The notes under the pieces are model-generated. The model saw nothing but the letters and a program-made list of their open reading frames with translations. It did no database searches and was not told where the DNA came from. DNA of 64,000 bases from Blasia pusilla (Eukaryota). The stretch spans positions 7,006,001 to 7,070,000 of the forward strand of contig CM114271.1 in the NCBI GenBank assembly GCA_050084515.1, written 5' to 3'. Shown here in pieces: positions 2,188 to 58,536 of this stretch (positions are counted from its first letter, which is position 1; the number at the start of each line of letters is the position of its first letter). The position numbers and the translations under genes were made by a program.

Positions 2188-2666
2188 TGTCACATCTGAG
2201 TAGCCGATAGGCCGAGATCTATCGTGGATAGGGCGTAGGAGCCAGCGGACTATCTTGAGTGTAACTTTGTCCCACAGTGTCGGATAAGGTTGAGGATAGG
2301 TCCAATGTGTCAGGAACGTCGTTTCTGACGACTTTCATGTTGAGGTCTTTTACAGCCGGGTGACTTGTTGACCAGGTCACGTGCCCCAGGTAACCTGTGC
2401 GCGCAAGTTACCAAGGGAAGGGCTACTCTTAGGGGAAGAGCCTTTTGGCTCTTCCCAACCTATATAAGAGAGGAAGATGGCTTTCCTAAGCCATCTTTCT
2501 CATGTTGGGCCGTTGGAGCACCTCCCTTGTATGTGTGTGAGCTAGGACTAGGGTGCTAGCGTCCGGATTCCTTGATAGCACAGGGTGGACGAGGCTCGAT
2601 ATGCCGATGTAGATTGAGGAGTGGAATTTTAGGCCAAGTGTGCCGTTTTTACTACTCTTTATTTTT
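2188..2666 (+). repeat. Terminal repeat A1 (479 bp)
   Basis: Direct repeat of 11323-11801, about 17 mismatches by eye (~96% identity), mostly transitions. Confidence 0.95.
2459..2468 (+). promoter_or_regulatory. TATA box in repeat A, flanked by two hairpins
   Basis: CCTATATAAG. Upstream GGGAAGAGCC-TTTT-GGCTCTTCCC and downstream AAGATGGCTT-TCCT-AAGCCATCTT. Also present in A2. Confidence 0.65.
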
Positions 2667-2680
2667 ACATGAGAAAGATG
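2667..2680 (+). promoter_or_regulatory. Putative self-priming primer-binding site
   Basis: ACATGAGAAAGATG directly after A1 is the exact reverse complement of CATCTTTCTCATGT (2492-2505), ~30 nt downstream of the TATA box. No TGG-type tRNA PBS is present. Confidence 0.7.
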
Positions 2681-3862
2681 TCAGGGGGCTGCTGGGAATT
2701 TGTTGTTTGCAGGTAGGCAAGCGAGTTGCCTTGGTCGGGAGCCCTGGAGACGTGTGTGTGACGTTTTGTGTCATTTTTTCTGTTCGGAAGGCCGTGGGCG
2801 GAAGCGCTGTCCATTTTTCTCAGATTTTGCTGGTGCGGATTGATGGGGGACAGCAGCCGAGTGTAGCGTTTGGTTGGGCGTCGGATGTACGCAAGTGAGG
2901 GTGTCGAGAGAGAAGGAAAGGGCAGGTTTGGGTCTTGCAGCCGCCGGGTGGCTGTCAAGTAAAGGCGGCTAGGTTAGGTCGCGAAGGCTAGAGTTAGGAC
3001 GCGGGCAGCAGACAGACGCAGACAGGCGCGGACGGGCAAACAGCGAACAGGCGAGGGGCGCGGACGGCGGATGGCAGACGGGCGTGGACAACAGACGGAG
3101 AGAACGGACGGGCGAGGGCCGCATAGGACCGCGGCCCCCCCCCCTTCTTTCCCGCACTTGGGGAGGGCCGCATAGGGCCGCGGGCCCTCCCCTCCCTTCG
3201 TTGTTCTCCCGCAGGTTGGGAGCACGGGCCAAGGGGGCGCGGATGGTGGACGGCAGACGGGCGTGGACGATAGACGGAGAGAACGGACGGCGAGACCGTG
3301 GGCCCCCCCCCATTTTTTCAGAGTGAGATTTTGCACGGAGATTATTTTTGGAAGACTGAACTGACTGTCGGCGAGGTGGGTGAGTTACATCGACAGTTTG
3401 CGGGGGAGAGTTGAAGATGGAGTATCTGTTGACGGGAGGATCGACATGCTGGTCGAGGAGAGTGTTGTGTTGCGGAGATTGTCATATCATGTGGAGGAGT
3501 GCATATTGACGGTGCAGCAGGTTGGAGGGCGTGATCAGTTAACCCATTTGAGTCCCTTTTCTTGCACTTGTCGTGTGTGATTGAGAGTGTTGGGTATCGG
3601 GTAGTAGCTGGTGCTAGATGGGTGCAGTGATGGTGACGAGTGTAGATTCTTTTCATGTGTAGCATGTTGGTGGATATACGGCGGTTTCCGAGTAGGGGTT
3701 GCGTGTATGACCCGAGAGAGTGTCGCTAGGTTAGGTGAGTCATTTGGGAGGCTCATGGTGAGCCCGAGTGTTGAGCATGGGTGAGGCCGGGTATGTCATC
3801 ACGGGATTGACGTTAGCACATGTGAGCTAGTGAGGCGTGTGGGAGATTCTCGATGAGTCTGA

Positions 3863-5413
3863 GTGCTTGAGTGGGTGAGACAAGGTTTGTCATCACGGCG
3901 TTCTTCGAGGGTTCGGAAGAACGGGGTAGCGCGAGCAGTGACACGGAGTGAAGTGAGATACCGAAGGGTTACCAGTGAGGAGCTCCCTCGACATCCATCC
4001 GTGACTGGATCGTCGTCATTGGACACTGGGTCTGGTGACGAGATCATCGACAAAGACAGTAGTACTTGGCAAGAGATGGACGACATGGGCCATTGGGGCA
4101 TGCGTCGTTTCTCGGGTGCAGTGGGCACCATCGACTTAGATAATTTCATCCAGGAGTTCGACATATGGTGCGACTTCCAAGAGATACGGACCCCGACACG
4201 GTTCAACCCTTTCATGGCATGGAAGGGGTTGTTCCAGCACTTGGAGGGTCCTCTGATGGATGACTACATGGAGTTTCGATCACTATATTCAGTAGAGATC
4301 GATGCCTGGAGGATGTATTGGGCTCCAGGGTATGTGTCCACTAGTGGTCGCGAGGCATATGATGGGATTGTGAGAGGAGAGAGACCCACACCATTAGCCC
4401 GGAGACTAGATGGAGAGGAGGGCAGTGAGACAGGCGATGTGGCAAAGACCTTTGGTGGTAGAGGGCCACCCAGCTTCATCCCCACAATGGAGTTCTTCCG
4501 ACATTTGGGGAAGAGCTACCAGGGCGTACGCACCGACAAGCTGAAGAGTCTACAGGATTTTCAGCGACGATCGGGTGAGAGTCTGAGAGAGGCCTTCACA
4601 CGCATGAGGAGGCTGATCATTGCTACGTTTGGAGGATCGAGGCGCGTCGGTCCAGTCAAGATTGGTCTGGGGTTACGGGACCGAGAACTACGGAGGAGAG
4701 TCGAGATGCGTGTCTTTGATTCACACAAATGGAAGCCCACATTGAAGGTGGTCTTTGAGTTGTCTGAGCGTATTGAGCTCAACATGAGTGAGGAGCAGGT
4801 AGTGACCGCTGGATTTTCTCGATAATCGACGGGTCCACGAGCGGCGGTGACCCCACAGGTGCCACAGCGAGCACCAGTACCACGAGAGCGGGCTAGTGTG
4901 CCTAGAGAGTAGGGCGGGTACCGTGAGCCTATGAGGCAACGACCCCCACCTACATATGTTGCCCAACAGGGACCGATGTGGTCTTGTTGGACGTGTGGAG
5001 GGGCCCATAGGCAGAGAGATTGCCCACAGCATGGGAGAGGACCACCAGCGCCTCCGATTGCTCAGGAGCCACAATGGATGGCCCCACCACATCACCAGTA
5101 TGACCATTGCCACAGATATGGTCACACTAGGGATAGATGTTTTGACCTTCGCCGAGGGGCACGTCCAGAGGTAGGCCGAGGGCCTAGGGGCGGTCGTCCT
5201 GGAGGAGGTCAGGGAGTTCTTCCTGGACGTGGTGGTAGAGGACCACCACCAGCCAGAGGAGATGGAGCAAGAGCACCAGAGCCGGCGCTTCTCTCACGCA
5301 TCGATCAGTTGGAGCAGAGGATTGCTGCCATGACGATGATGCAGCTTAGGGAAGACATGGAGCTGCGAGCAGCTAGTGTGACTCCAATCGCTACCTCTTA
5401 CCCGACGCGGTGA
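3863..5413 (+). pseudogene. gag: Gag (capsid-like region plus two zinc knuckles), disrupted
   Basis: ORF 3863-4825 (...FSGAVGTIDLDNFIQEF...FQRRSGESLREAFTRM) and ORF 4931-5413 with CWTCGGAHRQRDC and (Y)DHCHRYGHTRDRC knuckles plus RGG-rich segments. Confidence 0.8.
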
Positions 5414-6029
5414 GGATCTCTCCAGTATGGGATTCATGTGTAGTGCAGCCCAGGTTGAGGCAGCTGAAGTGGTGACTCGGGGTGCTGCGAGAGGCACCGA
5501 GCCATCGAGAGGTGGAGTTGAGACCCGACCCACGAGAGGGGACCGATGGGGCTGCAGCCAGGGTTCCCTGATCGTTCACATTGTCGGAGGCACTACACAC
5601 ACCATCGATGGTGCCTCGGCGACCAGCGGTGCCTCGATTCGAGGCACCTACATCGCGTCACAAGGAGTTGGAGTGACAACTCCTATGCCGGCTCAGTGGA
5701 GTCGAGTGTCGACTATAGTGTTGAGGTGGCCACTAGAGTGAGTCAGACTCCGCTATTTTCCGCCTTAGAGTTGGCGACGTGGGGAGTTGGACCAGGTGAG
5801 GTGTTCGGTTGGCCGCCACGTTGTGTGGCGTGGAGAGATGGCGCTTCTTGTTTAGAGGTAGTTAAGGAGGTGGTGGACTTGCCCTCGAGCGGTGCTTGGG
5901 ACGTTCCCCATAGAGTCGTGGCATGCGGCGGCAGCGAAGTTGGTAGATATGCCAGCTCGACCGGCCATAGAGCGAGCAGTGGTGACACCTGGAGTAGTGT
6001 TATTGGATAACTGAGCTGGAGTATTTCGC

Positions 6030-6420
6030 TTGGTTAGTCCAAAAAGGACGGTATACCACCCGCACCGCGTCCTACTTGATTCGGGAGCGCAACCCTTGAT
6101 GTTAGGGAAGGCGGCGTGTTTAGCGTTGGGGTTACGGAAGGCCAAAATTGAGCCTTGTCCCTTCCAGATACAGACCTCGATTGGGGGCGTATCACCCACT
6201 CAGTATATGACTCGACAGGAGATTGTTGTCAAAGTCCAGCCAGAGCATGCGACGGATAGTGCTATGGTGCGCACACGTGCGATTACGACACCAGCTGAGT
6301 CGTACGATGTGTTGGTGGGGAGTACAATGTTATATCCCCTAGGATTCATCCTTGACTTCTGGGAGGAGACCGTTGCTTATCGGCCAGGATGGCGGTCAGG
6401 TGACGGTCGGATGAGTCAAT
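6030..6420 (+). CDS. Retrotransposon aspartic protease domain
   Basis: VLLDSGAQ active site and SYDVLVG motif. Confidence 0.85.
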
Positions 6421-6794
6421 TACCCGTGCAGTTTGCAGGACGAGGTGGTCGATCACGAGGCGAGTCTGTGACCACGTTGGCGGCTTTCACAGGTAGTGTT
6501 AGCTGGCCAGGAGAGTTGTTGGAGGGGAACGCACATGCAGAGGATGTCCCAGTAGCGGATAGTCCCACGGAGAGACAGGCCATGGCGGGTGTCTCTTCCC
6601 ATGTTAGCGATACCTCTTCACCATTATGGGGTACGACTCGAGAGCTACAGAGGAGTGCCGACGACCTCGTGAGGCAGGCGTGGAGTCATGTTTTTATCCC
6701 TGAGCAGCAAGAGTCACGTGGCGATCGGGCTCTTGGAGTGGAGACGATGACCCCACTAGATACCACACCTGTTGTGTGGCAGTGCCCAGAGAAG

Positions 6795-7735
6795 GGTGTT
6801 AGATCTCTTCGGAGGGATTAGCACCGGATTGGCTGCCATATTGCGTGGCATACGGGTGCATCAGTACCTTTATGTGGAGAGAGATGAGACCGCGCGGCGA
6901 GTATCATTACGTCACGTGGCGAGATTGGTCCAGAGGTATCCTGAGTTGTTGTTGGTATCTGCAGTACGGGGATACCAGCATACGCTATCCGCCGACATCT
7001 CTTTGGTGGGGGTGCAGGATCTGGATAGAGTTGGCACCATTCATTTGGTGATTGTTGGATGGCCATGTCAGGGTCATTCATCAGCTGGCCGAGGATTTGG
7101 ATTGCAGGATCCGAGGTCAGGGGTATTTTGGGAGATGCTGCGAGTATTACGACACTTGCAGGAGAGTCAGATATGTTCTCCAGCATACATTTTGGAGAAC
7201 GTGCCATTGTTGGGAGACACTCGTGCACGTGTGATGATGAGTGTACATCAGGTGAGGTCCTGGTTGGGACCTACTATGTTGTTAGATGCAGCGAGAGTTG
7301 GGTCACGTGCCCATCGTCCACAACTGTGGTGGACGAACTTGATACCATCAGAGGTACTGAGTCAAGCCTACAGTGGAGTCCAGAGAGCACCACATCTCAC
7401 AGTGGATGTTATTTTGGGCTCAGGGCATCGATCTCAAGTGATGACACGCGATGATAGACCACCGTTGGCCACGGCCAATAGGGTGGGGGAGTTAAGGGTA
7501 GCCTTACCTACGTTGGTGAGCTTCCCAGCATCCCATGCCTTTCGTCAGGGAGGGCCAAGCATGATTTGGGATGAGGTGACCGGAGTATTGGAGGAGCCTA
7601 CAGTAGATGAGCGTGAGCGCGCCATGGGGTTCACTACCGGTACTACGGCGGTGCCAGGGATGACTGAAGCATCACGGAGATAGGTGTTGGGGCAGGGGAT
7701 GGACCTCAACTGTCTCACATGGATAGTCAGCCTAG
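6795..7735 (+). pseudogene. C5 DNA cytosine methyltransferase domain within Pol (frameshifted at its start; one nonsense change before motif X)
   Basis: Motif I VLDLFGGI, motif II YVERD, motif IV GWPCQG (7057-7074, catalytic Cys), motif VI ILENV, motif VIII HRPQLWWTN, motif IX ERERAMGF, motif X-like VLGQGMD after TAG 7681. Confidence 0.92.
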
Positions 7736-8099
7736 GTACGGCTTAGCAGAGACGGATGCGAGTGTCATCCATGCCGTCACGTCCACGAGTTGGACCACTG
7801 CCTACAGGGTATGTACAGGCATTGGCTGGGGGCGAGATGATAAGAGATGGACTTCCTGGGACGTCGTTCGAGCAGAGAGTGCGAAGGCGGCTAGAGTAGC
7901 ACATGTTCATTTTTCGGATGTGGAGCATGGTGTAGGCGATCAGAGTGGATTGGGTGTTGCGGAGGTGGCTAGGATTGCTACATAGCAACCAAAGCCAGAG
8001 GTTGCGTCCTCTCCGAGTGAGGTCACGATGGAGACTTGGGAGCCTGTGATAGGTCTCAAGTTGATAGGAGGAGAGCGATGGCGAGTTCATAGGTTTCTA

Positions 8100-9470
8100 A
8101 GAGGGCATGTTTGTTGTTTTGCCTTCAGTATGAGAGACTTGGGTACGCCAAAGGGTCCCGGGATACGGATTGAGTTGGCTAGTGATACGCCAATCTTTCG
8201 TCGACCCTACAGGTATTCTGATATGGAGCGAGCCTTGATTTGAGCGAGAGTCGGGACTTGTTGGAGGCAGGACTTGTGGAGTTATCACATGGGGAGTATG
8301 CATTTACCACAGTCATGCCGGCGAAGAAGGATATGTATGGCAATTGGACGGATAGGCGGATGTGTGGAGATTACCGTCCTATCAACCGACAGACGAGGTC
8401 AGATTGATATGCCATGCCTACTCCTAAGGAGATCTTTGATGCGGTAGGGCATACAAAGATCTTCAGTACTTTAGATCTCCGTGGTGACTATCATCAGCTT
8501 CCTATCAGGTTGGAGGACAGGGAGAAGACAACATTCTGGGGGATAGATCGGTCCGGGAGAGATTGCTTGTATCAGTGGCGGTTCTTACCATTTGGATTGA
8601 AGAACGCGCCTACGGAGTTTCAGAGAGTGATGGATAGGATTCAGGCTGGCTTGGATTTTGTACGATGTTACATAGATGATATTCTTATCTTCAGTTCCAC
8701 GGTTGAGGAGCATGAGCGACACTTGGAGGAGGTGTTTCGGCGATTGCGATTACATGGGGAAGTTACATCCAGGCAAGTGCAGATTCTTTCAGGAGCAGAT
8801 TGAGTACTTGGGACACACCATATACCCGAGTGGGTTAGGCGTTCAGAAAACGAAGGTAAAGGCTATTGCGCAGATTCCACGCCCTACAGATGTGAGTCGA
8901 GTCCGAGCATTTCTTGGACTGGCGAACTTCTATCGACGGTATGTCAAGGGTTTTAGTGCGATCGCAAAGTCTTTGACCTTGTTGACGAGACTTGATCAGG
9001 TGTGGTTGTGGGGAGATGATCAGGAGCGAGCATTTCAGGAGCTCAAGGACAAGTTGACGTCCTCACCCATTTTACAGAGACCGGTTAGGGGTCGCCCATT
9101 CCAGTTACATACGGATTGGAGCATGTTGGGTCTAGGAGCAGTGCTTACTCAGAGGGATGACGAGGAGAGGGAGTTCATCGTGGCTTACGCGAGCCAATCG
9201 AACAACATTGCAAAGGCAAAGTACAACTCCTATGAGGGAGAGTGCTTGGCTGCAGTGTGGGCCGTGGCATATTTTAGGTGCTATTTGTTCGGCAACCCTT
9301 TCACACTTATCACTGATCATCAGCCGTTGAGGTGGTTGATGGAGTCCGACAAGCTTACGGGAAAGCTTGCCAGGTGGGCTCTATTACTACAAGAGTATGA
9401 GTTTGAGGTGGTTCATAGGCCAGGTTGGCTGAACCAGGATGCGGATGGGTTGAGTCGTAACCCATGTCCG
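8100..9470 (+). pseudogene. pol: Reverse transcriptase and RNase H (Ty3/Gypsy type)
   Basis: RMCGDYR, FSTLDLR..YHQ, LPFGLKNAP, YIDD (8669-8680). RNase H TDWS...EGEC...TDH...ADGLSR. Confidence 0.95.
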
Positions 9471-9723
9471 AGTCAGAGAGACGACACAGGAGCTCGATGG
9501 CACGGAGAGAGTGATGAGGAGATGGTGCCCGGTTGGCATGCATCCGCCTATCTTTGTTGGTTGACTATGGCAGGTTAGCCACAGGTGATGACTCCAGTGG
9601 TGGGATTGGATGATGAGTCTTTGGATCCGGAGGTTAGTGAGGAGGCGACAGGTGGTCGTGATATCCATGACAACGTGGAGGTTGTGGAGTTATTGCGCAT
9701 TGGCGTCATTGTGAGTACAGTGA

Positions 9724-11106
9724 GTGCTAGGGAGCGGGATCGGATCCTTCCTTCAGAGAGCCAAGAGGTTCAGGTGGGAGGGGACACACATTTTACGGGT
9801 ATGGGAAGATGGTAGGATACGAGTGGTACCTCATCCTTCCCAGCAAGCACGTGTAGTGCGACATGCCCATGAGGAGTTGGGACATTTTGGAGTAAAGCGT
9901 ACGTTCAACTTACTCCAGGTTCAGTATAGGTGGCGCGGCATGCATACTGGGGTACAGCAGTTTGTGGCCAGATGTATGGTATGTGACAGAGTGCGAGCAT
10001 CCTTCAATGCTCCCACTCCACAGTTACATCCTTTGCTGATTATGGGTTTAGGTTATCGGTGGAGTTTAGACTTTGCGGGACCTTTGCCATTGACAGGGCG
10101 TCATCATAGGTACGTGTTGGTCATGGTGGAGCATTTCTCCAAGTGGATAGAGTTGGTGGCACTACCAGACAAGGCGAGCAAGGGAACAGCTTATGCGTTT
10201 CTAGATCGTGTGCTTAGTCACTTTGGTGCACCGGCGGAGGTGTTGACTGACCAGGGTACCGAGTTCAGGGGAGAGTTTCAGGCCTTGTGTGATCAGGCGC
10301 TGATAGATCACCGCACCACATCCAGGGATCATCTTGAGGCGGACGGGTTGGCGGAGAGAGTGGTACAGACGGTGAAGAGAGGATTGCGCAAGTATGGCTT
10401 GCAGCGGGGACAGTTGAGGGAGTGGGACCTACAGTTGCCATGGTTGGCTATGGGTTATCGCTTTAGTTGGCATGCATCCTTGACATCATTTTCACCGTAC
10501 TTTTTGCTCTTTGGGAGAGAGCCAGATTTACCTGCAGCGATTCGAGGTGACATGGCGGAGGTGTTAGATCTTGATGATCCAGATGTGTGGGTGCAAGCAT
10601 GTTCTCAGAGGGCAGAAGTTTTTCGTAGAGTTATGGCTATGGCCTTTGAGAACTTAGCTATTGCTCAGCATACAGATACATTGAGGTACGCGACCATTCA
10701 TGGAGGAGGTTATTGTCCAGGGATTAGGAGGTTTCATCTTGGAGATTACGTGTATTTACAGCAGGCGGCACCCACGACGCTAGATGTCACTGCAGGGCGC
10801 ACGATCCTACGTGTGCGCGAGGTATTACCGACCGGAGTCCTCATGTTGGAGGGACGGGATGGTATGGTTTGGAAGGATCATGTGCGCAATTGTGCGCCAT
10901 GTCATCTTCCAAACGTAGATGGGATGGTGGATCCAAGCTTGGCAGTGGTACTTGCAGGCTTGAGGTGTATGTTGTGCGGATCTGCGAGGGGTGCAGCCAC
11001 CATGTTGGTATGTGATGGTTGTTCTCGAGGGTGGCATATGTCATGTCTGACCCCCCCTCTTGATGTGGTTCCCACGGGACGATGGATGTGTCCGAGATGT
11101 GTATAG
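9724..11106 (+). CDS. DDE integrase with C-terminal PHD finger
   Basis: HHCC (HEELGHFG...CMVC); D (SLDF), D (TDQG), E (LAER). C-terminal C4HC3 CMLC...VCDGC...WHMSC...WMCPRC. Confidence 0.93.
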   Translation: MLGSGIGSFLQRAKRFRWEGTHILRVWEDGRIRVVPHPSQQARVVRHAHEELGHFGVKRTFNLLQVQYRWRGMHTGVQQFVARCMVCDRVRASFNAPTPQLHPLLIMGLGYRWSLDFAGPLPLTGRHHRYVLVMVEHFSKWIELVALPDKASKGTAYAFLDRVLSHFGAPAEVLTDQGTEFRGEFQALCDQALIDHRTTSRDHLEADGLAERVVQTVKRGLRKYGLQRGQLREWDLQLPWLAMGYRFSWHASLTSFSPYFLLFGREPDLPAAIRGDMAEVLDLDDPDVWVQACSQRAEVFRRVMAMAFENLAIAQHTDTLRYATIHGGGYCPGIRRFHLGDYVYLQQAAPTTLDVTAGRTILRVREVLPTGVLMLEGRDGMVWKDHVRNCAPCHLPNVDGMVDPSLAVVLAGLRCMLCGSARGAATMLVCDGCSRGWHMSCLTPPLDVVPTGRWMCPRCV

Positions 11107-11173
11107 GGTAGTAGGTCATGTCAGAGCGATGTGATATTTTCTATCTGGAGTTAGGGGGATCCAACTGCGAGCT

Positions 11174-11182
11174 AGGGGGGCG
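11174..11182 (+). promoter_or_regulatory. Polypurine tract
   Basis: AGGGGGGCG immediately 5' of B1. An equivalent TAGGGG tract precedes B1 in all four copies. Confidence 0.8.
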
Positions 11183-11320
11183 GTTGTGTGATCTCCATGT
11201 ATATGTATGAGTTGATTTTTGTACATGTGTGGATCGATCCGTGTGTGGGGAAGATCAGTGTTGTGTGGTGTAGATGTGACGAGCGATGTATGTTGTGTAG
11301 CGATATGTATGTGCACGACA
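11183..11320 (+). repeat. Terminal repeat B1 (138 bp)
   Basis: Direct repeat of 11802-11939; ends GTGCACGACA. Confidence 0.93.
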
Positions 11321-11322
11321 GC

Positions 11323-11801
11323 TGTCACATCTGAGTAGCCGATAGGCCGAGATCTGTCGTGGATAGGGCGTAGGAGCCAACGGACTATCTTGAGTGTTAC
11401 TTTGTCCCACAGTGTCGGATGAGGTTGAGGATAGGTCCATTGTGTCAGGAACGTTGTTTCTAACGACTTTCATGTTGAGGTCTTTTACAACCGGGTGACT
11501 TGTTGACCAGGTCACCTGCCCCTGGTAACATGTGCGCGCAGGTTACCAAGGGAAGGGCTACTCTTAGGGGAAGAGCCTTTTGGCTCTTCCCAACCTATAT
11601 AAGAGAGGAAGATGGCTTTCCTAAGCCATCTTTCTCATGTTGGGCCGTTGGAGCACCTCCCTTGTATGTGTGTGAACTAGGACTAGGGTGCTAGCATCCG
11701 GATTCCTTGATAGCACAGGGTGGACGAGGCTCGATATGCCGATGTAGATTGAGGAGTGGAGTTTTAGGCCGGGTGTGCCGTTTTTACTACTCTTTATTTT
11801 T
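11323..11801 (+). repeat. Terminal repeat A2
   Basis: Copy of A1, joined to B1 by a 2-nt spacer forming the palindrome GACAGCTGTC. Confidence 0.95.
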
Positions 11802-11939
11802 GTTGTGTGATTTCCATGTTTATGTATGAGTTGATTTTTGTACATGTGTGGATTGACCCGTGTGTGGGGAAGATCGGTGTTGTGTGGTGTAGATGTGACA
11901 AGCGATGTATGTTTTGTAGCGATATGTATGCGCATGACA
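11802..11939 (+). repeat. Terminal repeat B2
   Basis: Copy of B1; ends CGCATGACA, followed by TSD GGAG. Confidence 0.93.
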
Positions 11940-13417
11940 GGAGCGAGTACCACACAGTATATCACCTGACAAGAGGTTATGGTGAGGATTTTCCCGGGAC
12001 ATCCTACACATGATCCGTGGTGTGAGCCAAGGCGATAGTAATTGATGCACGGTCCTACGACATCTTGGTTGGAGGAGTAGAGTTATACCCGATGGGGTTT
12101 TTCTTAGATTACTGGGAAGAGTGAGCATCCTATAGACCAGGATGGCAGTCATGTGATGGGCGCCTTAGCTCATTACCCATTTGATTCACAAGTGCAGTGA
12201 TCGAGCGACGGCCAAGAGAGATGGCGACCTTCGCAACATTTAGCAGTGCCATCACTTGGCCTAGTGATTTGATTGAGGGACATGTCCATGCAGAGGATAC
12301 TCCCATTCCTAAAATTTCTATGGACATGAGTGCATTGGTAGTCGCATCAGTCCGTGGAGGAGAGGTTCCTCTTTGGAGCTTGAATGAGGAGCTTCGACGC
12401 TTAGCCATTGACCATGTGCAGACCGCGTGGAGCGAGACATTTCCACCAGAGTGTGATGGGTCAGAGGAACCCCACGTAGGCAGGAGTGTTGCTATGACCC
12501 CTTTGGATGCTACTCGGATTGTGTGGTACGTCCCAGAGGAGGGTATTTGGGTGTTGGATCTCTTTGGAGGGATTAGCACTCGGTTAGCTGTTGTTTTGCA
12601 CGCTGGAGTGCGCGTGCAGCAATACTTGTATGTGGAGATTGATGATGTTGTGAGGCGCGCTTCACTTTACCATGTGGTGCAGTTACGCCTGCGTTTTCCC
12701 AACTTGTTGTCTACGTCCGCCATTCAGGGTTCCCTACAGAGGGATATTTCATTGTTGGGATGCAGGACATGGAGCGCGTAGGGACCATAAACTTGGTCAT
12801 TGCTGGTTGGCCATATGAGGGCCAGTCGAGTGTTGGACGGGGTAATTGATTAGCTACCTCTCGTTCCATGTTATTTTGGGAGATGATGCGGATCTTGCGA
12901 CACTTCCAAGAGCATCAGTCTCGTCTTGCAACATACATCCTAGAGAATGTACCAATTTTGGGCGATTCGAGGTCCTGTGTGGTGATGATTGCATATCAGA
13001 TGCGCGTATGGATCGGCCTGAAAATTTTGTTGGATGCGGCGAGTATGGGTTCACAAGCACATTGCCCGCGTCTTTGATGGACTAACTTGGTACCACACGA
13101 GGTATTGCGAAGGTCATAGACGAGAGTGGAGCGCCCCTCCAATTTGTTGGTGGATTCTATATTGGATCCAGGCCGTCGATCATAGGCAGTGAGGCACGAT
13201 GATCGTCCATCGTTGAGTATGGTCAACAAGATTGGCATGCCACGTGTAGCCTTTCCCACATGGGTGAGTTTTCCCGATTCCTATGCATTCAAGGAGGTCG
13301 GAGCCGGCTTGCTTTGGGATGAACTGGTACAAAGGTTGGTGGAGCCCAACGCCGATGAGCAAGAGGGAGCAATGGGATTCCCCACATGAGTGACGGAAGT
13401 ACCATCACTATCAGAGG
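11940..13417 (+). pseudogene. Older DNMT-Gypsy copy, right part (protease C-terminus and decayed DNMT)
   Basis: GASTTQYIT continues the protease; VLDLFGGIST, GWPYEGQS (catalytic C>Y), YILENV, EQEGAMGF. Confidence 0.85.
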
Positions 13418-40268: not shown

Positions 40269-42399
40269 AAATATATTTGGAGATGTGATTATTATGGAGG
40301 AAGGTGATTTGATGCATAGGCAAACTACACCACAGCTTTTGAGTAGTGTGGAGCAACAAATTTTGCACGAATGATGTGCCTCGACTTGGATGCCCACAGG
40401 GTATAGTGCATATTTTCGAACAATCTTCCTTTGTAATTACGCAACGAGTTGGGATAAGGCTTTAGGGTATTTTTTGGAGTGTTGCATGTGCCAATTGAAG
40501 GGCTTTGGTAGAAGTCATGTTCGAGCGGAGAGAATCTAATAAAAAGCCACATATCATGCAAGGCCACTTTCTACACATTCGATTTGTTGTGTCTCCGTTG
40601 TATTTCCCCACCAGTGGATAGTGGATGATGAGGATGGCAATAATGATAACAAGGAGATATCAAGCATATATGGCATGTCAAGCTAAGGTTACATTTTACT
40701 GAGACTCGTCGGTCTCAAGCATATGTTTATTCTTATGAGCAACTTGAACATAATTGAGATGTTAGGTTGGTATGACCAAGAGAGGGATGCCCGAGTGGAG
40801 ATGCATGAGTATGATTTATCGAGTTCATAACTTACATGATTGACAATATTCAACAACATTGCATGGGAGACAACATGGAAATTGCCCTATATTGGACCTA
40901 AAATTATGGAGGGATTCATCTAACCTCTTACCAATGCTTGGTCATTCATATAGTTACAAGGGAGTGGTCGGCATTTTTGGATCAAGGCAAACAATGTTTC
41001 TCGACGTAAGACACCAAAGTATATTTCTTTTTTTACCAAAAGGTGCAATTATCAAAAAAAATAAAAAATATTGTTGTAGGGGATCTCCCATGATTTGTTT
41101 GGAGTGTCAGAGGAGGTATTATTGTTGGTTTTCTTCATATTCTAAGTAATTTCCTTGTGGTGTTGATGGTATTGGATTGTCCTTTAGGGCGCGCCTTGTG
41201 CCCTCCATAAGTGAAGTAGTATTTTTTCATTAATAATCCATCCCTTCACTTGTGGAAGTATCTTGTGACACGTATCCCTAATAGTAAATAGGCTTTGCAA
41301 AAGGTGGATATTGTGTGTCGCAATGTAGAGTGACGGAACATAACATATTGTGTGAATATTACATGTTTTACTATAATCAAACAGATGATTAATGTTTGCA
41401 AATTACTAAGTACCTAACCTAACGCATATTCATATGAAGTTAATTTTATTTCATCATTGATGAATCGATCAAAGTACCTTCATTGCTATGCTTCTTCAAA
41501 GACTGAGTCTATTATCAACTCTCTTGGATGCTTTGAGCGTTGCTTAGCATAGTGCTCCTTGAAGGTCCGAGGCTCTTTGATATTAGGCACATATCCCTTC
41601 CTTTTCAAAATTTTCATGTGCTACTAGATTGAAAGTCTTCCCATCGTGTGCTCACTATCAAGAGCATCCCAATACTTGTAGCTGTAGGGATCCATTAATG
41701 TTTTAGGAGATATAACAACTTGAATTCATACTTCATTTGTTGTACGTATTGGTAAGTACAAGCCTCTCGCCAAAGGAACCAACAAAAATATAACCTCTTG
41801 CACCTCATTGCACTTTCAATCGTCCATATTCCCCTCTTGAATCTTTGAGACATTCCCTATCTCACTTACAACCAAGCACAAAATAAGGACCCACCCCTCT
41901 TGAAAATGCATTTTATAAGGAATAGAATATGTCTTATCATTTGTGACTCCCACCAATCCATTGCAACTCGATTGCAATTCCACTATAAGCTCTTGTAATT
42001 TCAGATTGGGAGTACCAAAACTAAAGCCAAGATTTATGGCTAGATTCTAAATCCAACTTGCAATCACTTTTACGATTTTAAGTCTAATTTGAGTTCTTGT
42101 AGTTGCAATAACAAAATGTTTGTTTGGACTAGAAAAACTAGCCATAACTCATAAATCAAAGTGAAGTCACACAAAGTGATGAACTTGAAAATCAACATCT
42201 TTTGGCCAAAATGGACTTCCAATGGAGTAGTCTTGCCAACTCTATCCCTATAGCTAGTAGTGTCTGTACCGCGTAGAATGTGTGGAATAGCCTATACCTT
42301 TGTGCATTAAACATCAAGTTCACCTAAGTCTAATATACAATCCAAGTACTCAATCATTCTAATCATTGAAGAACTTACACTTACCCAAATTTAGCTTAA

Positions 42400-44150
42400 G
42401 CCCATGTAACAGACTATAATCATCAAAACACTTTCTAATGCTCATGCTCCTGTACTGTGCTATTGAAGATTATGATGTCATCAATGTAATACCTAGCAAA
42501 ATCTAAACCTTCTAAGATGTGACTTATGAAACTAAATAAAGTATGTCGGGGTATTGTTCAACCCAAATAGTGAAAATTCCTCTAGGTACAAAATTTATTC
42601 CATGAGGATCGAAGCCCCAAAATATTTTCTTCTTCATATTTTCCATGTGATAGGCAAGTGATGGTAAGCGACTCTAAGATCTCATAAAGGGAAGACCTTT
42701 GTATGCCTAATAACATCAAATATTCCTCTAAGATAGGCATCGCATCCCTATTGGCCTTTGTATTGGGATTAATTGGTAGGTATTCTTCAAATAGTCGCCT
42801 ATCCATCTAATTTCCTGCACATATTTCTTCGAAGGTATGAGTGTGATAGATGCATGTTCTTTTTGTAGCATCTTCACTAGTTCTATATGAATCAAGTCTT
42901 GAATCTTACTCTAAATCAAATCCCTATCCAATGCATATTACGGTACATGTAGGATGGTTGAAAGATTAGCATCTCACTAGACAAGTCAATATGAATCTTT
43001 AAGGATTCATATTGACTTTGCTAGTGAGACGCTAGTTATACAAACCATGCATACTAAATGCAAAACAACCCCTCAAACTTCAAAGGAACTTGTGCAATCC
43101 ACATCACTCTCCTTTTGTTGACTTTTGTCTCATCTCTCACTCTTAAGTCTCCGTCATAAAAATGGTAAGACTTTCCAATACTAGGGTTGCTGGTTATTAC
43201 GTACACAAACATCTTAGTACCAATGATATTTGAAAACTCGCCAACATCCAACTTAGACATCTCCACTCTTTGCACTCCTTTGTGATCAACGATGTATATC
43301 ATACAAATTAAATTTGTTGTCATCTAGTAGGTCATCTACATCACGTTCCAATTAGTCCATTAAAACCATTGCTTGTCCTCCACAATGTTGAAGAACTGTC
43401 ATAGATAGTTATACACATTCTCCTCATCGCATGACATTCTTCAAGTCTATCCTCCATATGGGCTTACCACGAAGGATCATGCAGTTTGGAGGAGAATGTA
43501 TGATCATGCCAGTCGTTGCAACACATCTTCATTCAAATGGGAAATTATGGATGTTGGTTATTTAAAGATAGAGCAACAAAAATCAAATGTTGACTATGAA
43601 ATATGCTAATAGGTTGAATTCACTACAATTAGAATATATAGAGTAAACACATTACTTAAGCAAATATGATGAATACACTTATATGGTATCACACCAATGT
43701 AAAGATATCATTGAAGTAGCCTCAACAAGCAGAGCAAGTTTAGTCAATCAATATATTTTATAAGATTTAAGTGTTATCCTTGGTTGCTCAACGATTAAAG
43801 GTATTTTACACATCATCCAATTATTGTGGTAAAATACAAATATCCAAAAGAGTGAAGCTATTCTCTTCGAGACTCATAACAGAGTTATGAATATTGTGTG
43901 TAATTGATTGTATGCACGTTGTGTTTCATCTAATTTTTATGGAATTTAGATAAATATAATTAAATTTCATCATTTTACATCACATTTGCATGAGATATGC
44001 TAGTGTTGATACATGCCCAAACTTAAGATAACTCTTGTAGTTTGGTATAATGATAATTAGAGTGGCATGTTTAACAACAACATGCATAGATTTATCTATA
44101 TTCTCTATATCCAGCTCTGCATGCCATCGAGCCCCTCTCTCATCACATAT
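42400..44150 (-). pseudogene. Very old RT/RNase H remnants related to the DNMT-Gypsy family
   Basis: Minus strand GLDFARYYIDDI (~42475-42510), FAFSMH, and DERGARWHAE (cf. DDTGARWHGE). Confidence 0.55.
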
Positions 44151-44967: not shown

Positions 44968-47900
44968 TGTCGTACGAATACACATCGTTGCCAATATACA
45001 TCGGCTGCCATACACACATATGTCTAAGATCCATCTAGCTATGAATCCTAACATCTCTATACATAGACGATTGAACAACCCCAACATAAAGTTGAATCCG
45101 CACTATAAACTCTAATGAGATGTGCAATCAACCGTGCTTCATCCAAACAACCATATTCGTGAATGAGATACACACTATTGTAACAACATGAGAAAGTGTA
45201 TACAAGGACTCCCAAAATATGTGTGATCTTCCTTATTGATCGCTCCTAGCCCACTCTTCAAGAGAGAATCCAGGCTCAATACATGCAAACTGCATCGTAT
45301 CACGAATCCCAACACGAGTCTGCAATCCTAAGGAGATGAGCTCCAAATGAGCTTCATCCGAGGTGTATCCCACTAGACACCACCATGGGTGACATGTACA
45401 CATAGGTCACCTTCCTCCTAGTAGGTTACTACCAACCTGTAGTGTACACATATATACTAACTCCCTAACAACTACACATGTGGTTCCCTCATGAGACCAA
45501 CTATCAACTAACCAACGACCATATAGGTCCAAGTGGATCCATACATGGCTTGGAAGGTCAACCTCTCCAAGGTTGCCACTCGTCATAAAGGGAAGGATGA
45601 CCTACACTCGTAGGTCATCTCCTAAGAGCAAGCTACATATGACTTATCAAAATAGGAGAGTACAAGACCCCTATAGGGCCTCGATACTATTTCATCCTAT
45701 GCCTCATCTACCATAGCAGATGTCGTGCGAATACACATCGTTGCCAACATTCATCAGGTGTCATGCACACACATGTCTAAGATCCATCTAGCTATGAATC
45801 GTAACATCTTGTGATGCCCACAATTTTATACTTTTGAAGAAATAAATCTTTTTATTCAACAAAGACTTGTATATACATTATGATTTTGATTATTATGTAT
45901 TATTATGGGAAGGAATGAGTAAGATTAAAGAGAATCAAAAAGCTCCAAGGACAAGGCACAGAGATATAAAATCAAGGATTTTCCCAAGAGGAGAGGAGAA
46001 TAAAATAACCAAGTCTAAAGAACCAGCAAGAAGCTTCGGAAGGACAATGAAGATTTGTGAAGCTCTGTTAAGCTCTGTCTATGAAGTGCTTCGCTCTTGA
46101 ACGAAGCATGATGAAGAAGAAGAGAAAGAAGTACTTCGCTCTTGAACGAAAAACGAAGCACCTTGAACAAGAACAAAGAATGGAGCGCTTCGTCTTCAGA
46201 TCATGAGAAAGAGCTTCATCCTCAAGCAAAGAAAAAGAGGTCCAAACTTAGTAGCGAAGCGAAGCTAAGATTGACAATGATTTCAAGTGACACATAGTTA
46301 GAACACTCAGAATAGGAAACGACGTAACTCTTTGTATTAGATAGGTAGCTAAGATAGTTTTGTTTTCTGGATTCACAGGGATTGTAGGAAAAGAAAAGAA
46401 CACCATAGATCTAGGTAGTTACAAATATTGAAGAGACACTAGCTTCATCAAGAATGCTTCGAATCTTTGGATCACTCATACTTCAGAGAATATTTAAGAA
46501 GCAAAGAAGTAGCTATCATCATCATTCTCTTACGAAGTCCTTACGTTATAAGAATGGTCCGAGCAAGGGAGTAGTACCCGCTCGAGCTTGTATATACTTT
46601 TGAAGCTTTCTCATTCTTAATGGAGTAGTAAAGCACTCATTCATTCATTCTGATGTGCGATGCTTATGTATGAGTATTCTTTTTGGGTGTGTAGAGAGAA
46701 GAGTGAATCAGGCGAACCTTTCTTATCAATGGAATAATCAATATAGAGTTGTAGGAATTTTGTTTAACAAAGAGTAGCCTGCCGAGACGGATTGAGTTCC
46801 GAAAGTAGGATAAGCCAGCTTTCATGTAAAGGTCTTTGTGAGGTTTCTTGATATCGAGAGGAAATCTACCTAAGCGTGTTGTCAACTCCACTAGAGAGAA
46901 TAGAGGAAAGAAACCTTGGTACTAAGAAAGATCCAAAGATATTGATAAGACTTTGAATATAAATCACACACATTTAAATACAACTATTACAACATAATTA
47001 TAATTTCAAACTCTTTTTTCATCAAACAATGATCCTCTTGGGGATCGAACTCAGTAAACGATTGTAAAATTGAAACTCTTATACTTTACACATCTCTACA
47101 CATGAAAGACTAGATAACCCCTATGGTCCCCCTAGTTGGTGGTTAGGTCCCTCTAACTCAAGATAGCCTAAAAAATAAGTCTAAATGCTATGTACATTTT
47201 TTATGCTAAGATCATGAGGCTGGATGCTATGTTGCCCTATCGTTAGTCACCTTCATGCAATCCATAATATCAAGAGTCATCTTGTAATCTACCTATCACA
47301 TTATGTACATTTGGGACAAATCCAACGTCCTTGAGCAACCAAGTCAAGAGGTAGCGTCAAACATGACATATGCCATCCTTATAACACCCATCACAGACTA
47401 GCATTATGACTGGTCCTCTGGTAGACCCACACAACATGCATCTCAAGCCTGCAATAACGACTGCTAAGCTCGGATCAATCCTCCCATCTATATTTGGAAG
47501 ATGACATGGCGCACAATTACGCACATGATCTTTCCAAACGGTGCCATCATGACCCTCTAAAACAAGGACTCCATAAGGTAAAATCTCTTGCACTCACAAA
47601 ATAGTGCATTTGGTCATCATGTCCAATATCTTCGGTATTTTCTACTCTAGGTAGACATAATCACCATGATGGAATCGCTGAATCCCTTGTCGATTGCCTC
47701 CTCCACGCGTAGTCGCGTACCTCAAATTATTGCAATATTGAGCGATATCCAACTGGTTCTCAAACGCCATGGGCATGACTCTTCGAAAAAGCTCATCCCA
47801 TTGAGAACACGCTCGCACCCATACGTGTGGATTTTCGAGGTCAAGTAACTCAACCACATCTCCTCAAATCGACGATGATAACTTTGGCTCCCTCCCATAG

Positions 47901-49918
47901 AGCAAGAAATACGGTGAAAATGATGGCAGGGATACCTTTCAACTAAAGTGGTAATCCATCGCCAACCACGGCAACTGTAGGTCCCAATATTCCAAGTGTC
48001 CTCTCTATAGTCCATACTTGCATAATCCTCTCTTCATCGCGTGCACAACTCTCTCTTCCAAACCATCTATCTCACGATGATCTCGAGAAGTCATCCAATG
48101 ATCGATCTATTAGTGCCTGATCACACAAGGCCTGAAAGTCACCCCTAAACTCAGTACCCTGGTCTCTCAACACCTCCTCTAGTGCGCCGAAATGACTAAG
48201 CACTCTATTAAGAATGCATAAACCGCTCCCTCACTCGACCTATCCAACAATGTTACCAACTCAATCCACTTGGAGAAGTGCTCTCCCATGACCAACATGT
48301 ACCGACTATGGCGCCCCGTCAATGGTAAAGGCCTTGCAAAGTCTAAACTCCAACGATACCCTAATCCCATGATCGGTAAAGCATGCAAGTGTGGTGTCGG
48401 AGCATTGAACGATGCCCACACCCTATCACATATAATGCATATGGCTACAAACTGCTAAACATAAGTCTGCATACCATTCCACCAATACAGAATCTGAATC
48501 AAGCTATACGTACCCTTGACTACAAAATTCCCTAACTCCTCGTGAGCATGCATGCCTCACGACTCATGCTCATTGCAAATGATGCGAAACCATCTGCACT
48601 CATCCATCCTCCCAAAATCGAAGCACATGCACCCCCTCTCGCCTGAACCCCATGGCTTGCTGTAGGACTCGATCTCGCTCTCTAGCACCAACTGTGCTCG
48701 CTCAGACATCAGTGCGCAGGTACTCCAAGACCAGCTCATCGTCGTGGATGTCTCCTGTCCTTGTCGACTCATCACTAGCATCTTGATCTGAGGACTTACC
48801 ATCCAACTTCCCTCCTAGAGTGGATGCCTCATACTGACCTGACATAACCAATAGACACAAATAAGCAAATGTGTGCCAACCCGGCACCATCTCCTCATCA
48901 CTCTCACCATGCCACCGCGCTCCAATCGCATCGCTATAGCTCGTGCATGGGTTACGGCTCAACCCGTTTGCATCCTAGTTCAGATGTCCTAGGCGATGGA
49001 CAACCTGAAAATTGTACTCCTGCAACATAAGTGGCCATTTGGCAAGCTTACATGTAAGCTTGTCAGACTCCATCAACCATCTGAGTGGTTGATGAGCGTG
49101 AAAGGATTCTCGAACAAATAACATCTGAAATGGGCCACTACCCACACTGCAACTGAGCACTCCCCCTCATAGGAATTGTACTTTGCCTCCCCAGCGTTGT
49201 TCGAGCGGCTCGCATATGACTATGAACTCCTTCCCCTCATCATCTCTTTGAGTGAGCACCGCTCCTAACACCAACATACTCCAATCCGTATGTAACTGGA
49301 ACGGATGACCATGCATAGGTCTCCTCAAAATGGGCAAGGACATGAACCTATCCTTGAGCTCATGAAATACTCCCTCCTGATCATCTCCCCAAAACTACTC
49401 CTGGTCCAACCTAGTCAGCATTGTCAGTGCCTTGGCAATCGCATCAAAGCCCTTCACGTACCGTCGGTAGTAGTTCACCAATCCCATGAAAGCTCAAACT
49501 CAACCCACATCTGTAGGGCGGGGAATGCGCCCTATGGCCTCCACCTTTGTCTGCTGAACTCCAATACCGCTTGGATGAATGGTGTGTCCAAGGTACTCAA
49601 TCTGGTCATGGAAGAACTTGCACTTGCTTGGATGTAACTTCATCCCTTGTAATTGCAATTGTCGAAACACCTCCTCTAGATGTCTCTCATGCTCCTCAAC
49701 CGTGGCACTGAAGACGATGTAACATCTCGCATAATCCAAACTAGCTAAAATCCTATCCATAACTTGCTGAAAACCCGCAGGGCCGTTCTTCAACCCAAAT
49801 GGTAAGAACCGCCACTAGTACAAAAAATCCTTCCCCAAAGGATCTATCCCCCAAAATGTTAGCTTCTCCTTGTCCTCCACCTGGATGGGCAATTGATGAT
49901 AGCCAGCACGGAGATCCA
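44968..49918 (-). mobile_element. 5'-truncated diverged family member (RT-RH-IN-PHD) with B1-A-B2 end
   Basis: Pol fragments (FGLKNGP, WSLDF, PHD CMLC...CDGC). B2 44968-~45085, A ~45086-45718, B1 45721-~47122 (split by a solo LTR). B1/A junction reads GACA-TC-TG on the minus strand. Confidence 0.85.
45810..47090. mobile_element. Solo LTR (1281 bp) inserted in repeat B1
   Basis: TGTGA...TTACA ends, 5-bp TSD CATCT (45805-45809, 47091-47095); the B1 sequence resumes after it. Confidence 0.85.
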
Positions 49919-51572
49919 AACAACAAAAGATAACTTTCCAAATGGGTCGTGATCCTCATAATTAAATGTGCGCCAATGCAAAACATCATAGCTCTAATCC
50001 GCTCATACTAGAATGGAACCACATCAGAGTTTTAGAAGCGAGGCATAAGTTGTAGACGTGAGACATGAGCCTTGATGGATGTCTCAAATGATAGGATTGT
50101 GACCTAGCACTGTCTTATTTGGGAAGAGCTTAAGCCCCTCAAGAGTTGGGCTCAAATAGGATTGTAATCTCACTTGAAACATGACTAAACGTTTGGGAGT
50201 TCTCTGTGTTTTAGGTCATGCCGACTAGATCCAATTTGCGTTTGGGATGAATAAATTGAGAGTAGAAAGCTCGTAGGAAGCAATTTTCGGCCCAATGCAC
50301 TACATATGCAAAAAGAATGCATGGGCAAATATCTAAAAATCATCCCCAAACTATTGGAATGATAGTTCAATCGAGGTCCATAAGGAACGACCAAAAATCT
50401 CTCCCCTAAGTCTCGAATGACTTGCATGTGTTTGGTAGTAAGAGACCGCAGATAGATATGGTGAACTTGAAGGATGGCCCAAGAACAAGACTTGGAAGAT
50501 GCAAGGCTTATTTACCCAAACCATAGTACATGTGAGTGTGTCTGAGTGCAGTCATAAATCAACTCTCATGCATCAAATGTTGTAGAGTTGTGTAGGAAAG
50601 ATATTGATAGAAGTAATCACGCAAATCCCGTTGGATTAGCAAATAAATTCATTAGAACGATCTCTAATTTTTGCCTCTCCAAATTTACCATCACGTCCAA
50701 AATAGGCATGAAGAAACCCCTATGGTTATTATATATGAAAATATAGTTTTTACTAGTGGTTACATGTGCAAATAATCATTGGATATAAAGTGAAGGGAAA
50801 CTATTTTGGTGCAACAAACACATGAATGGTCATCATATATGGACTTTAAGATAAAAGCGAAGAAAGCTACTATATACTCGTGTGTATAGCTCACCATCAC
50901 TTCTTGTACCAGCTCAATACCTCTTGAGAATCTATGTGATCATGAGAATCCTTGTAGAATATAAGTTTTACTTCTAGTCGTGTTTTGACCAATTGACCAA
51001 ATGTCTTGAGCCGCTTATTTAATGAACTTATCCTTCAATGTAAGTATTGTTTGATTTCTCCATGATCCTTTTCCCCTTCTTACCAATTTTACGTCTATCT
51101 ACATCTAGTTTTGTTTGAAAAAATATTTAAAATAAATCTTCCAATAAAGCGTCAATAAATTACCCATGCATTTGTTGATTTTTCCCATCAAGCATGTCAT
51201 GATTGACACTAAATCATCACCACATTTCTCTTTGCAATCCCTTACCCATCAATCAAATGATTGGCATTGATTTATCATCGCATTTATTTTTTGTATTCCT
51301 TACCCATCAATCAAACTTTAAATGCTCCTCTCTATAGCAATCTGTTTGGGAAATTGAGAGGCCTTCCCTTTTCAATTCTTTTTCACATTTGATTCACTTC
51401 AAGATTATTACGAAATTTGTTATAGATTTCATGATTTTATTTCCCCCCATTTAAATCATACAACAATGCATTATTCTATAAATTGATGCTAAAATTTCTA
51501 TAAGTATTAAGAATAGCATGCCTTATCTTTAAATATAAAATAAGATCTATAAAGGGGACCTTCTAATGGGAT

Positions 51573-57355: not shown

Positions 57356-57456
57356 ACCTTGTCGAATAGATCTATCTACACCCAATTGAGGTTATACACA
57401 ATAAGTGACTCAAGTTTGTGTGCATAGAATTGAGTAGTGGTATCTTGCTCTTTGTG

Positions 57457-58510: not shown

Positions 58511-58536
58511 AGTTATTTGACTTACTATCACTACTT

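Follow-up and report, generated by a model that had tools for sequence, protein, structure and literature searches.

Probable self-priming and separate copying and integration ends in a split-repeat Ty3/gypsy retrotransposon of Blasia pusilla

A retroelement in the genome of Blasia pusilla raises the question of how DNA that is copied between one pair of ends comes to be inserted by another. The element occupies positions 2188-11939 (9,752 bp) of the 64,000-nt stretch of DNA that was analysed (here called the window; features lie on its plus strand unless otherwise stated), starts with TGTCAC, ends with TGACA and has GGAG on both flanks (2184-2187 and 11940-11943), the two copies of a 4-bp target-site duplication (TSD). 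Between these TG...CA ends its layout is A-internal-B-A-B, so that in place of two equal terminal LTRs it has A at one end and B-A-B at the other, with a polypurine tract (PPT) before the first B.

Repeat A1 (2188-2666; 479 nt), a U3-R-like sequence that forms the left end of the integrated element, opens with the terminal TGTCAC, ends in a T-tract rather than CA, and is 96.5% identical to its second copy, A2 (11323-11801). A2 stands between B1 (11183-11320; 138 nt), which ends in CACGACA, and B2 (11802-11939), which provides the right end of the integrated element with its final TGACA and is 93.5% identical to B1. The PPT (11170-11182) lies directly before B1, not before A2. Where B1 meets A2, the strand-symmetric palindrome GACA-GC-TGTC (11317-11326) forms an att junction of two integrase ends with a 2-nt spacer between them; where A2 meets B2 (11796-11807), an end defined by the priming site is fused to an end defined by the PPT.

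The internal region codes for a gag-like reading frame (3863-4825), broken downstream, which shares a 45% identical stretch with the related loci L146 and L139, matched no Pfam family and is called gag-like from its position. It is followed by part of a domain of the C5 cytosine DNA methyltransferase type (6760-7683; PF00145, E 5e-9), whose homologues are Marchantia, Calypogeia and Sphagnum proteins, some of them fused to reverse transcriptase (RT). Stops and frameshifts interrupt the reading frames of the window copy, that of the methyltransferase gene included. Downstream lie an RT piece (8408-8803; PF00078; best PDB match Ty3 RT, E 6e-23), an RT connection and RNase H piece (8676-9578; PF17917, PF17919) and a DDE integrase with an H2C2 zinc finger and a C-terminal PHD finger (9724-11106; PF00665, PF17921, PF00628). 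The integrase ends in the PHD finger followed by a stop, and no chromodomain family was matched at E up to 0.01. Nor did Pfam scans of eight plus-strand frames detect a tyrosine recombinase family; a sub-threshold match on an alternative frame (anemone neurotoxin, E 0.007, under its cut-off) was taken as noise. Homologues of the integrase were found in liverworts, mosses, Klebsormidium and chlorophytes (Calypogeia, Riccia, Marchantia, Sphagnum, Klebsormidium and Haematococcus among those named). With its Pol order RT-RNase H-integrase and its DDE core, the element belongs to Ty3/gypsy, with split terminal repeats.

Related sequences are found nearby. The element sits in a decayed relative (11940-13400) that also has a methyltransferase region, 64% identical to 6747-7632, and an older 3' part of the same family, with B-A-B, lies at 51573-57357 (plus strand). 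Older copies or fragments of other families, with 65-74% identity, lie on the minus strand at 47114-49931, where the copy is cut just past the PPT, and at 42263-42990. Beyond the window, the element's methyltransferase has many close homologues among annotated Marchantia genes that encode a DNA methylase domain, and these may be pieces of retrotransposons rather than host genes.

The putative primer-binding site (2667-2680) opens on the first base past A1. As an earlier note on this DNA had stated, these 14 nt are the exact reverse complement of 2492-2505 inside A1 (14/14, with no extension on either side); of 20,000 dinucleotide shuffles of A1, none gave 14 nt, and complements anchored at the site reached 11 nt at most. 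The 14-mer has a second copy inside A2 (11627-11640). We take 2492-2505 as a putative self-primer and as the probable 5' end of the genomic RNA, with transcription starting at about 2492. The earlier note had called 2492 the expected transcription start, and the spacing on which this rested holds, as 2492 lies 31 nt past the first base and 24 nt past the last base of a TATA box (TATATAA, 2461-2467). RNA reads, by contrast, do not pile up there. In three RNA-seq runs and one contig set under the same species label, coverage was low and mainly in the sense direction, made up of reads that were mostly 90-95% alike, from diverged copies. Within this shallow and mixed material there was no start pile at 2492; a single pile of 5 molecules was seen at 2466, in one of the three runs. 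In the leader, GC-rich direct repeats of 57 nt and 33 nt lie within 3055-3311, and RNA-seq depth was zero in the bin 3024-3331.

Predicted folds add a possible constraint on where the RNA begins. A hairpin at 2470-2501, overlooked in the earlier note, is formed by an inverted repeat in which an upstream (U3) arm, 2470-2483, pairs with 2488-2501 and so with primer sequence. RNA starting at 2492 is predicted to form the primer:site duplex (z -2.1), whereas in RNA starting at 2440 the predicted fold buries the 14-mer in the hairpin and the duplex is lost. A similar hairpin is predicted in three of the four families compared below. In these models, the hairpin would mask the primer in any RNA that contains U3, including the 3' copy, and priming would need an RNA start downstream of about 2484.

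If the pairing is used for priming, it should have been kept while the sequences themselves changed, and both covariation in diverged subfamilies and complementarity in other full-length copies had been named in the earlier note as points to check. Within the window family (family 1), 28 of 30 loci, picked by similarity to the priming region, retain 14/14 pairs; the changes in the other two (L018 and L023) are uncompensated. Four families, two of them from other organisms, have four different priming sites. In the window family, family 2 (L095), L146 and L169, the longest perfect complement of the site in its own A is 14, 18, 17 and 15 nt, a length reached in 0 of 5000 shuffles for each family, while against the A of other families no site finds more than 6 nt. 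The geometry is likewise shared: the site abuts the end of A to the base in every family, a TATA-like motif stands 31, 26, 26 and 32 nt before the complement, and the primer 3' end lies 161, 164, 158 and 128 nt before the end of A, in the same order of families, down to 49% integrase identity. In family 2, whose 3' part is also present in the window with its own B-A-B end (58536-62416, minus strand; 73% DNA identity in pol) and served in the covariation test, the pairing can be seen at 7 five-prime ends, with one mismatch in some of them, and two relatives of L169 (L164 and L177) keep 11 perfect pairs. A third subfamily (L107), in which the start of A has diverged (77% to family 1), retains the identical 14-nt site and primer.

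These comparisons bear on two other readings of the 14-nt match. Both 14-mers are skewed in purines and pyrimidines, and one might suppose the pairing to be a matter of chance or the relic of a local inverted duplication in a single family. This reading was rejected on the strength of the shuffles and of covariation in four families, where independent sequences occupy the same geometry, and we consider its probability negligible. A second reading is that a host tRNA, a tRNA fragment or another host RNA is the primer, in which case the match within A would be incidental or a by-product of copying. Osser, Bryco and Bianca use half-tRNA priming, as described in PMC6317226, and the last 7 nt of the 14-mer resemble, by eye, a Met anticodon loop, Met tRNAs being absent from the set that was compared. 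The site begins with AC, however, and the earlier note was right that there is no tRNA primer-binding site of the TGG type. In the comparison with host tRNAs that the same note had called for, the best 3'-anchored match of the 14-mer was 4 nt among 43 distinct tRNAs (an incomplete set, without Met, Leu, Ser, His, Val and Tyr), and a genome-wide pattern joining the primer's last 10 nt to a T-arm motif gave 5 matches, none of which was called as a tRNA. Since the four sites are unrelated in sequence and each finds its match in its own repeat and in no other, a host primer is highly improbable.

Self-priming has been described for Tf1/sushi elements, for plant Tcn1 and for TAR (PMC6317226, PMC4600332), while for SM-Tcn1 one report found no evidence of it (PMC2864245). 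As in Tf1/sushi, the primer-binding site of the window element lies directly past the 5' repeat and is complementary to what is probably the element's own RNA 5' end, with no tRNA involved. In elements of the Tf1 group the integrase carries a chromodomain, the site is preceded by CA and the RNA folds into a pretzel (as described in 10.1101/2022.12.06.519325); they are chromoviruses with ordinary LTRs, whereas the window element has a PHD finger in place of a chromodomain, split repeats, and a T-tract (across the families compared, a T-tract or TTC) where their LTRs end in CA. Of the three duplexes of the pretzel, the central duplex and a helix beside the site on its 5' side are predicted here, and the downstream side arm scored no better than shuffles in any of the four families, at the one window size used. 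The earlier note's appeal to the Tf1/sushi group thus stands as regards the manner of priming and is not supported as regards kinship, and we compare the element with Tf1 in how it works without filing it as a member of the group. TAR and Houba offer a further likeness, as plant elements with predicted self-priming (PMC6317226), but these are Ty1/copia elements with ordinary LTRs, as opposed to the gypsy order RT-RNase H-integrase found here.

We then consider what the copies in the genome say about ends. Family 1 is abundant, with 825 exact starts made up of A plus the priming site in the 390-Mb genome, and the B/A junction motif has 1250 exact-pattern matches across families. Among the 30 best-matching loci, 29 start at a TGTCAC-like A with no B upstream, the 30th having aligned to a neighbouring copy. 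The expected 3' ends were fetched for 20 loci, and comprised 10 with B-A-B, 1 with B1 deleted, 3 with a single B and 6 in which no end lay in the stretch; at the 10 B-A-B ends, 8 TSDs were perfect 4-bp duplications and 2 were imperfect. The 3 single-B cases among the 14 resolved 3' ends are A-internal-B elements with a perfect TSD (L013/L042, L015/L044 and L019/L048), which could be one-repeat products or B1/B2 recombinants and should be incompetent for replication. Under a stricter pattern, 5 A-plus-site matches had B upstream, as against 825, and all 5 follow integrase sequence and are 3' ends; the form A-B-A-internal-B was found at none of the 825 starts.

The joint between A2 and B2 provides a second kind of evidence. 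Across the genome, 503 joints are exact, and in a census whose counts exclude deletions and inserts starting with T, 16 imperfect joints carry an insert starting with A and 20 one starting with C or G. The latter are G in 13 cases, GGGGGCG in one (both being suffixes of the PPT), a single C in three and other inserts in three, and one further PPT suffix occurs among the inserts that start with A; the single-base A or G inserts could also be substitutions in the T-tract. When the start of B was left free, in a pattern able to match inserts of up to 24 nt, all 15 joints whose insert starts with AC carried a prefix of the priming site, with lengths of 2, 3, 3, 3, 3, 4-5, 6, 8, 8, 9, 13, 13, 13, 13-15 and 14 nt. 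One joint holds the whole 14-mer site and then passes directly into B, and a search for longer inserts, of 15-45 nt, turned up a single joint. If a 14-nt primer is copied into the plus strand, remnants should stop near 14 nt, as these do, and such a cap would place the RNA start without recourse to the TATA box. Self-priming is thus well supported by four different sites, each pairing only with its own repeat, together with remnants capped near 14 nt, and we conclude from these sequence comparisons that the element very probably uses its own RNA 5' end as a self-primer. The linear cDNA end that the earlier note had placed at the 3' end of A is upheld as well.

Deletion or gene conversion from A1 may explain some of the joints that retain part of the site, but not a cap at primer length. 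Remnants at least 3 nt long occur at 14 joints, which are divided among solo A-B units flanked by TSDs (9), complete 3' ends (2) and truncated contexts (3). Such remnants are therefore enriched in solo A-B units with 4-bp TSDs (9/14; L051, L052, L055, L062, L063, L275, L277, L278 and L280), while nearly all single-base inserts belong to complete 3' ends (L054-L065 and L097-L103; 1 solo among 13 fetched). Some solo units may thus have arisen when strong-stop DNA was inserted directly, and not by recombination. At two joints the site remnant is followed by a fold-back copy of the end of A, and short fold-back scars of this type are known from polymerase-theta end-joining. Three complete 3' ends continue 35, about 104 and about 135 nt past the end of A into the leader before reaching B (L104, L105 and L108, with 5' ends L249-L251; TSD match 3/4 in each), for which we propose either mispriming downstream or conversion from A1. 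In family 2, one strict pattern yielded 0 joints with retained site sequence. Covariation at joints within a family was considered and set aside, as the variant site remnant in L274 has no compensating change in the adjacent A.

The two copies of B were also compared. A private variant of B is present in both B1 and B2 of every element compared (30/30; 4 A/A, 26 T/T), and B1 and B2 diverge by 4.7% within elements as against 5.9% between them. Sharing of this kind would be expected if B2 is recopied from B1, and shared descent could also yield it.

Self-priming fixes one end of the cDNA, and the integrated element can therefore not be the direct product of reverse transcription. More specifically, the priming site and the PPT define a copied repeat B-A, while the ends of the insertion come from the internal palindrome, so that integrase must cut internally and the free ends must be joined. 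That the ends of reverse transcription are in this way uncoupled from those of integration, through cutting at an internal att site and end-joining, we hold to be likely. The full route, from a self-primed Ty3/gypsy RNA to an insertion with uncoupled ends, is also probable, if slightly less so.

By this route, the RNA would start at about 2492 and its first 14 nt or so would pair with 2667-2680, a pairing for which covariation is the evidence. The primer would be cut off after about 14 nt, presumably by the element's own RNase H, just as RNase H cleavage reportedly frees the self-primer of Tf1, and the released primer would start minus-strand DNA at 2666; the 14-mer in the 3' copy of A would be masked by the predicted hairpin. 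Judging from its position, the PPT before B1 would start the plus strand, giving a copied repeat B-spacer-A and a cDNA of the form B-A-internal-B-A. Integrase would then make a 2-nt staggered cut in the palindrome GACA-RY-TGTC of the 5' repeat, leaving CA-3' ends with 2-nt 5' overhangs, the same as in ordinary 3' processing. The start of A and the end of B, which are the ends observed, would be inserted with the observed 4-bp duplication, and the free ends left by reverse transcription, the end of A and the start of B, would be joined before or after strand transfer to give A-internal-B-A-B. The scars observed at the joint would record such a joining; the agent may be host end-joining or an end-to-end switch of RT. 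Cutting at an earlier stage could account for two minor forms, A-internal-B and solo A-B; if the jump also failed, such an early cut could leave a solo A-B with a copy of the primer, as would match the enrichment of remnants in solo units.

A rival version of the last steps has the self-primed B-A-internal-B-A ligated into a closed 2-LTR circle, which integrase then opens at the B/A junction. It would give the same product, the joint scars resemble circle junctions, and cleavage of palindromic 2-LTR junctions by integrase has been reported for foamy virus and HIV-1 (PMC1180852, PMC4372172). A closed circle, however, has two identical att sites and should also yield A-B-A-internal-B, which accounts for 0 of the 5 B-A-site loci, against 825 starts, and B is upstream of 0 of 29 five-prime ends; the circle would require an extra mark to tell the sites apart, such as methylation by the element's own enzyme. 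This makes the circle unlikely, though of the competing accounts it is the one with the largest share of probability. Because the other product of a circle is not seen, we prefer a version in which integrase cuts a nascent intermediate. The 5' repeat would be the first to become double-stranded once the second strand jump has taken place, while the 3' repeat is still displaced, and such timing is, tentatively, the best explanation for use of the 5' site, at somewhat less than even probability. The circular permutation proposed in the earlier note accordingly survives in that the integrated form permutes B-A-internal-B-A, and is not supported where it implies a simple closed 2-LTR circle (0 A-B-A-internal-B among 825).

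The order of the repeats suggests another comparison. PAT and Ngaro elements are tyrosine-recombinase retrotransposons with split direct repeats, and the order A-coding-B-A-B is common to them and the window element. One could therefore imagine a DIRS/PAT-like replication in which the B1-A2 junction serves as an internal template for rebuilding the ends, priming takes place at another site and the role of the 14-nt duplex is purely structural, in packaging of the RNA or control of its translation. The order is indeed that of split-repeat DIRS elements, SymbioDIRS-Dnmt3 being a described split-direct-repeat element of the tyrosine-recombinase type (PMC5890265), and sense RNA reads span the A/B joint (2, 1 and 6 in the three runs), with few reads across both junctions. 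This replication scheme is nevertheless improbable: the site abuts the end of A to the base in every family, the A/B joints show PPT tails as well as site prefixes capped near primer length, and the 4-bp TSDs and TG...CA ends point to a DDE integrase. PAT/Ngaro-type elements integrate by tyrosine recombinase, in contrast to the DDE integrase, PPT and primer-binding site found here.

If integrase does open an encoded junction, as in the route that we prefer, the nearest likeness is with retroviral 2-LTR circles, in that integrase would cut a duplex, palindromic end-to-end junction into processed ends. The retroviral junction, though, is made of ligated ends of reverse transcription and belongs to a side route, whereas here it is encoded in the repeat, inherited through the RNA and apparently the sole source of integration ends. 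Circle junctions of the IS3 family are a comparable case of an end-to-end junction that is cut to processed ends.

The layout extends well beyond the window family. In metagenomic assemblies, a B repeat at similar spacing was present in 23 of the 63 loci examined (80 were returned), several of which are overlapping assemblies; of the 40 loci without it, many are short or cut, and some are possibly ordinary or decayed elements. Four complete A-internal-B-A-B elements were recovered from metagenomes, with 49-74% integrase identity, and their TSDs are perfect in two and match at 3/4 positions in two; three of the four also have the methyltransferase domain. The att core GACA-RY-TGT is kept in metagenome relatives down to 42% integrase identity. 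At that identity, L218 (7550-8090) has a short 56-nt B repeat with an identical GACA-GC-TGT junction, which suggests that the split-repeat layout is old. The att spacer (11321-11322 in the window, together with the matches across the genome) is nearly always GC, AC, GT or AT, as expected of methylation-driven decay of CAGCTG on either strand. In three distant relatives, L181, L176 and L213, a methyltransferase-like region lies between RT and integrase, as compared with before RT in the window, and no split repeats were detected in these three. In L181 (11340-11850), the frame past the PHD finger seems by eye to enter a second methyltransferase-like stretch, as in DAM-bearing LTR elements.

This repeat layout has been noted once before, in KnitGypsy-Dnmt3 of Klebsormidium nitens, which combines Gypsy domains, a cytosine methyltransferase in Pol and a DIRS-like repeat structure (PMC5890265). 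Both a methyltransferase inside a Gypsy element and a DIRS-like repeat order are present here, and Klebsormidium proteins are among the homologues of the window element's integrase-PHD region, with 49-53% identity; no protein named as Klebsormidium appeared in the search for methyltransferase homologues, which covered long proteins only. The main text of the K. nitens report has no terms for primer binding, target site or PHD and ascribes the acquisition to the K. nitens lineage, and three of its supplementary texts add nothing (PMC5890265). The present element differs in that it occurs in many copies in land plants and that its priming site, PPT, att palindrome and TSD are all defined. The layout is not dealt with in the available portion of a 2026 preprint on LTR elements that carry a methyltransferase (10.64898/2026.05.21.726589), and in the open-licence literature we found no account of the priming or integration route of this clade.

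Self-priming by itself is already known. What these analyses would add, with a probability that we put clearly above even, is an old and abundant clade of DDE-integrase elements in the green lineage in which the copying ends, set by self-primer and PPT, are separate from an obligatory internal att substrate of integrase, the 5' site alone being used. If this is true, every insertion would need an internal double cut and end-joining, and use of the 5' site alone would come about through timing or possibly through a methyl mark left by the methyltransferase that the element encodes. It is an old question of retrovirology whether an integrase of the LTR type can normally use a joined, palindromic end-to-end junction; the clade would be a natural case of integration by junction cleavage, at most a side path in retroviruses, and makes the question testable, since its substrate is a natural one, its products in the genome number in the thousands and its scars are diagnostic. 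Furthermore, the route provides a replication model for the Klebsormidium Gypsy elements with DIRS-like repeats, extends these to land plants and adds a self-priming plant lineage without a chromodomain. Finally, such elements would for the most part escape LTR finders that look for two equal LTRs, which predicts a blind spot in the standard LTR annotation of bryophyte and algal genomes.
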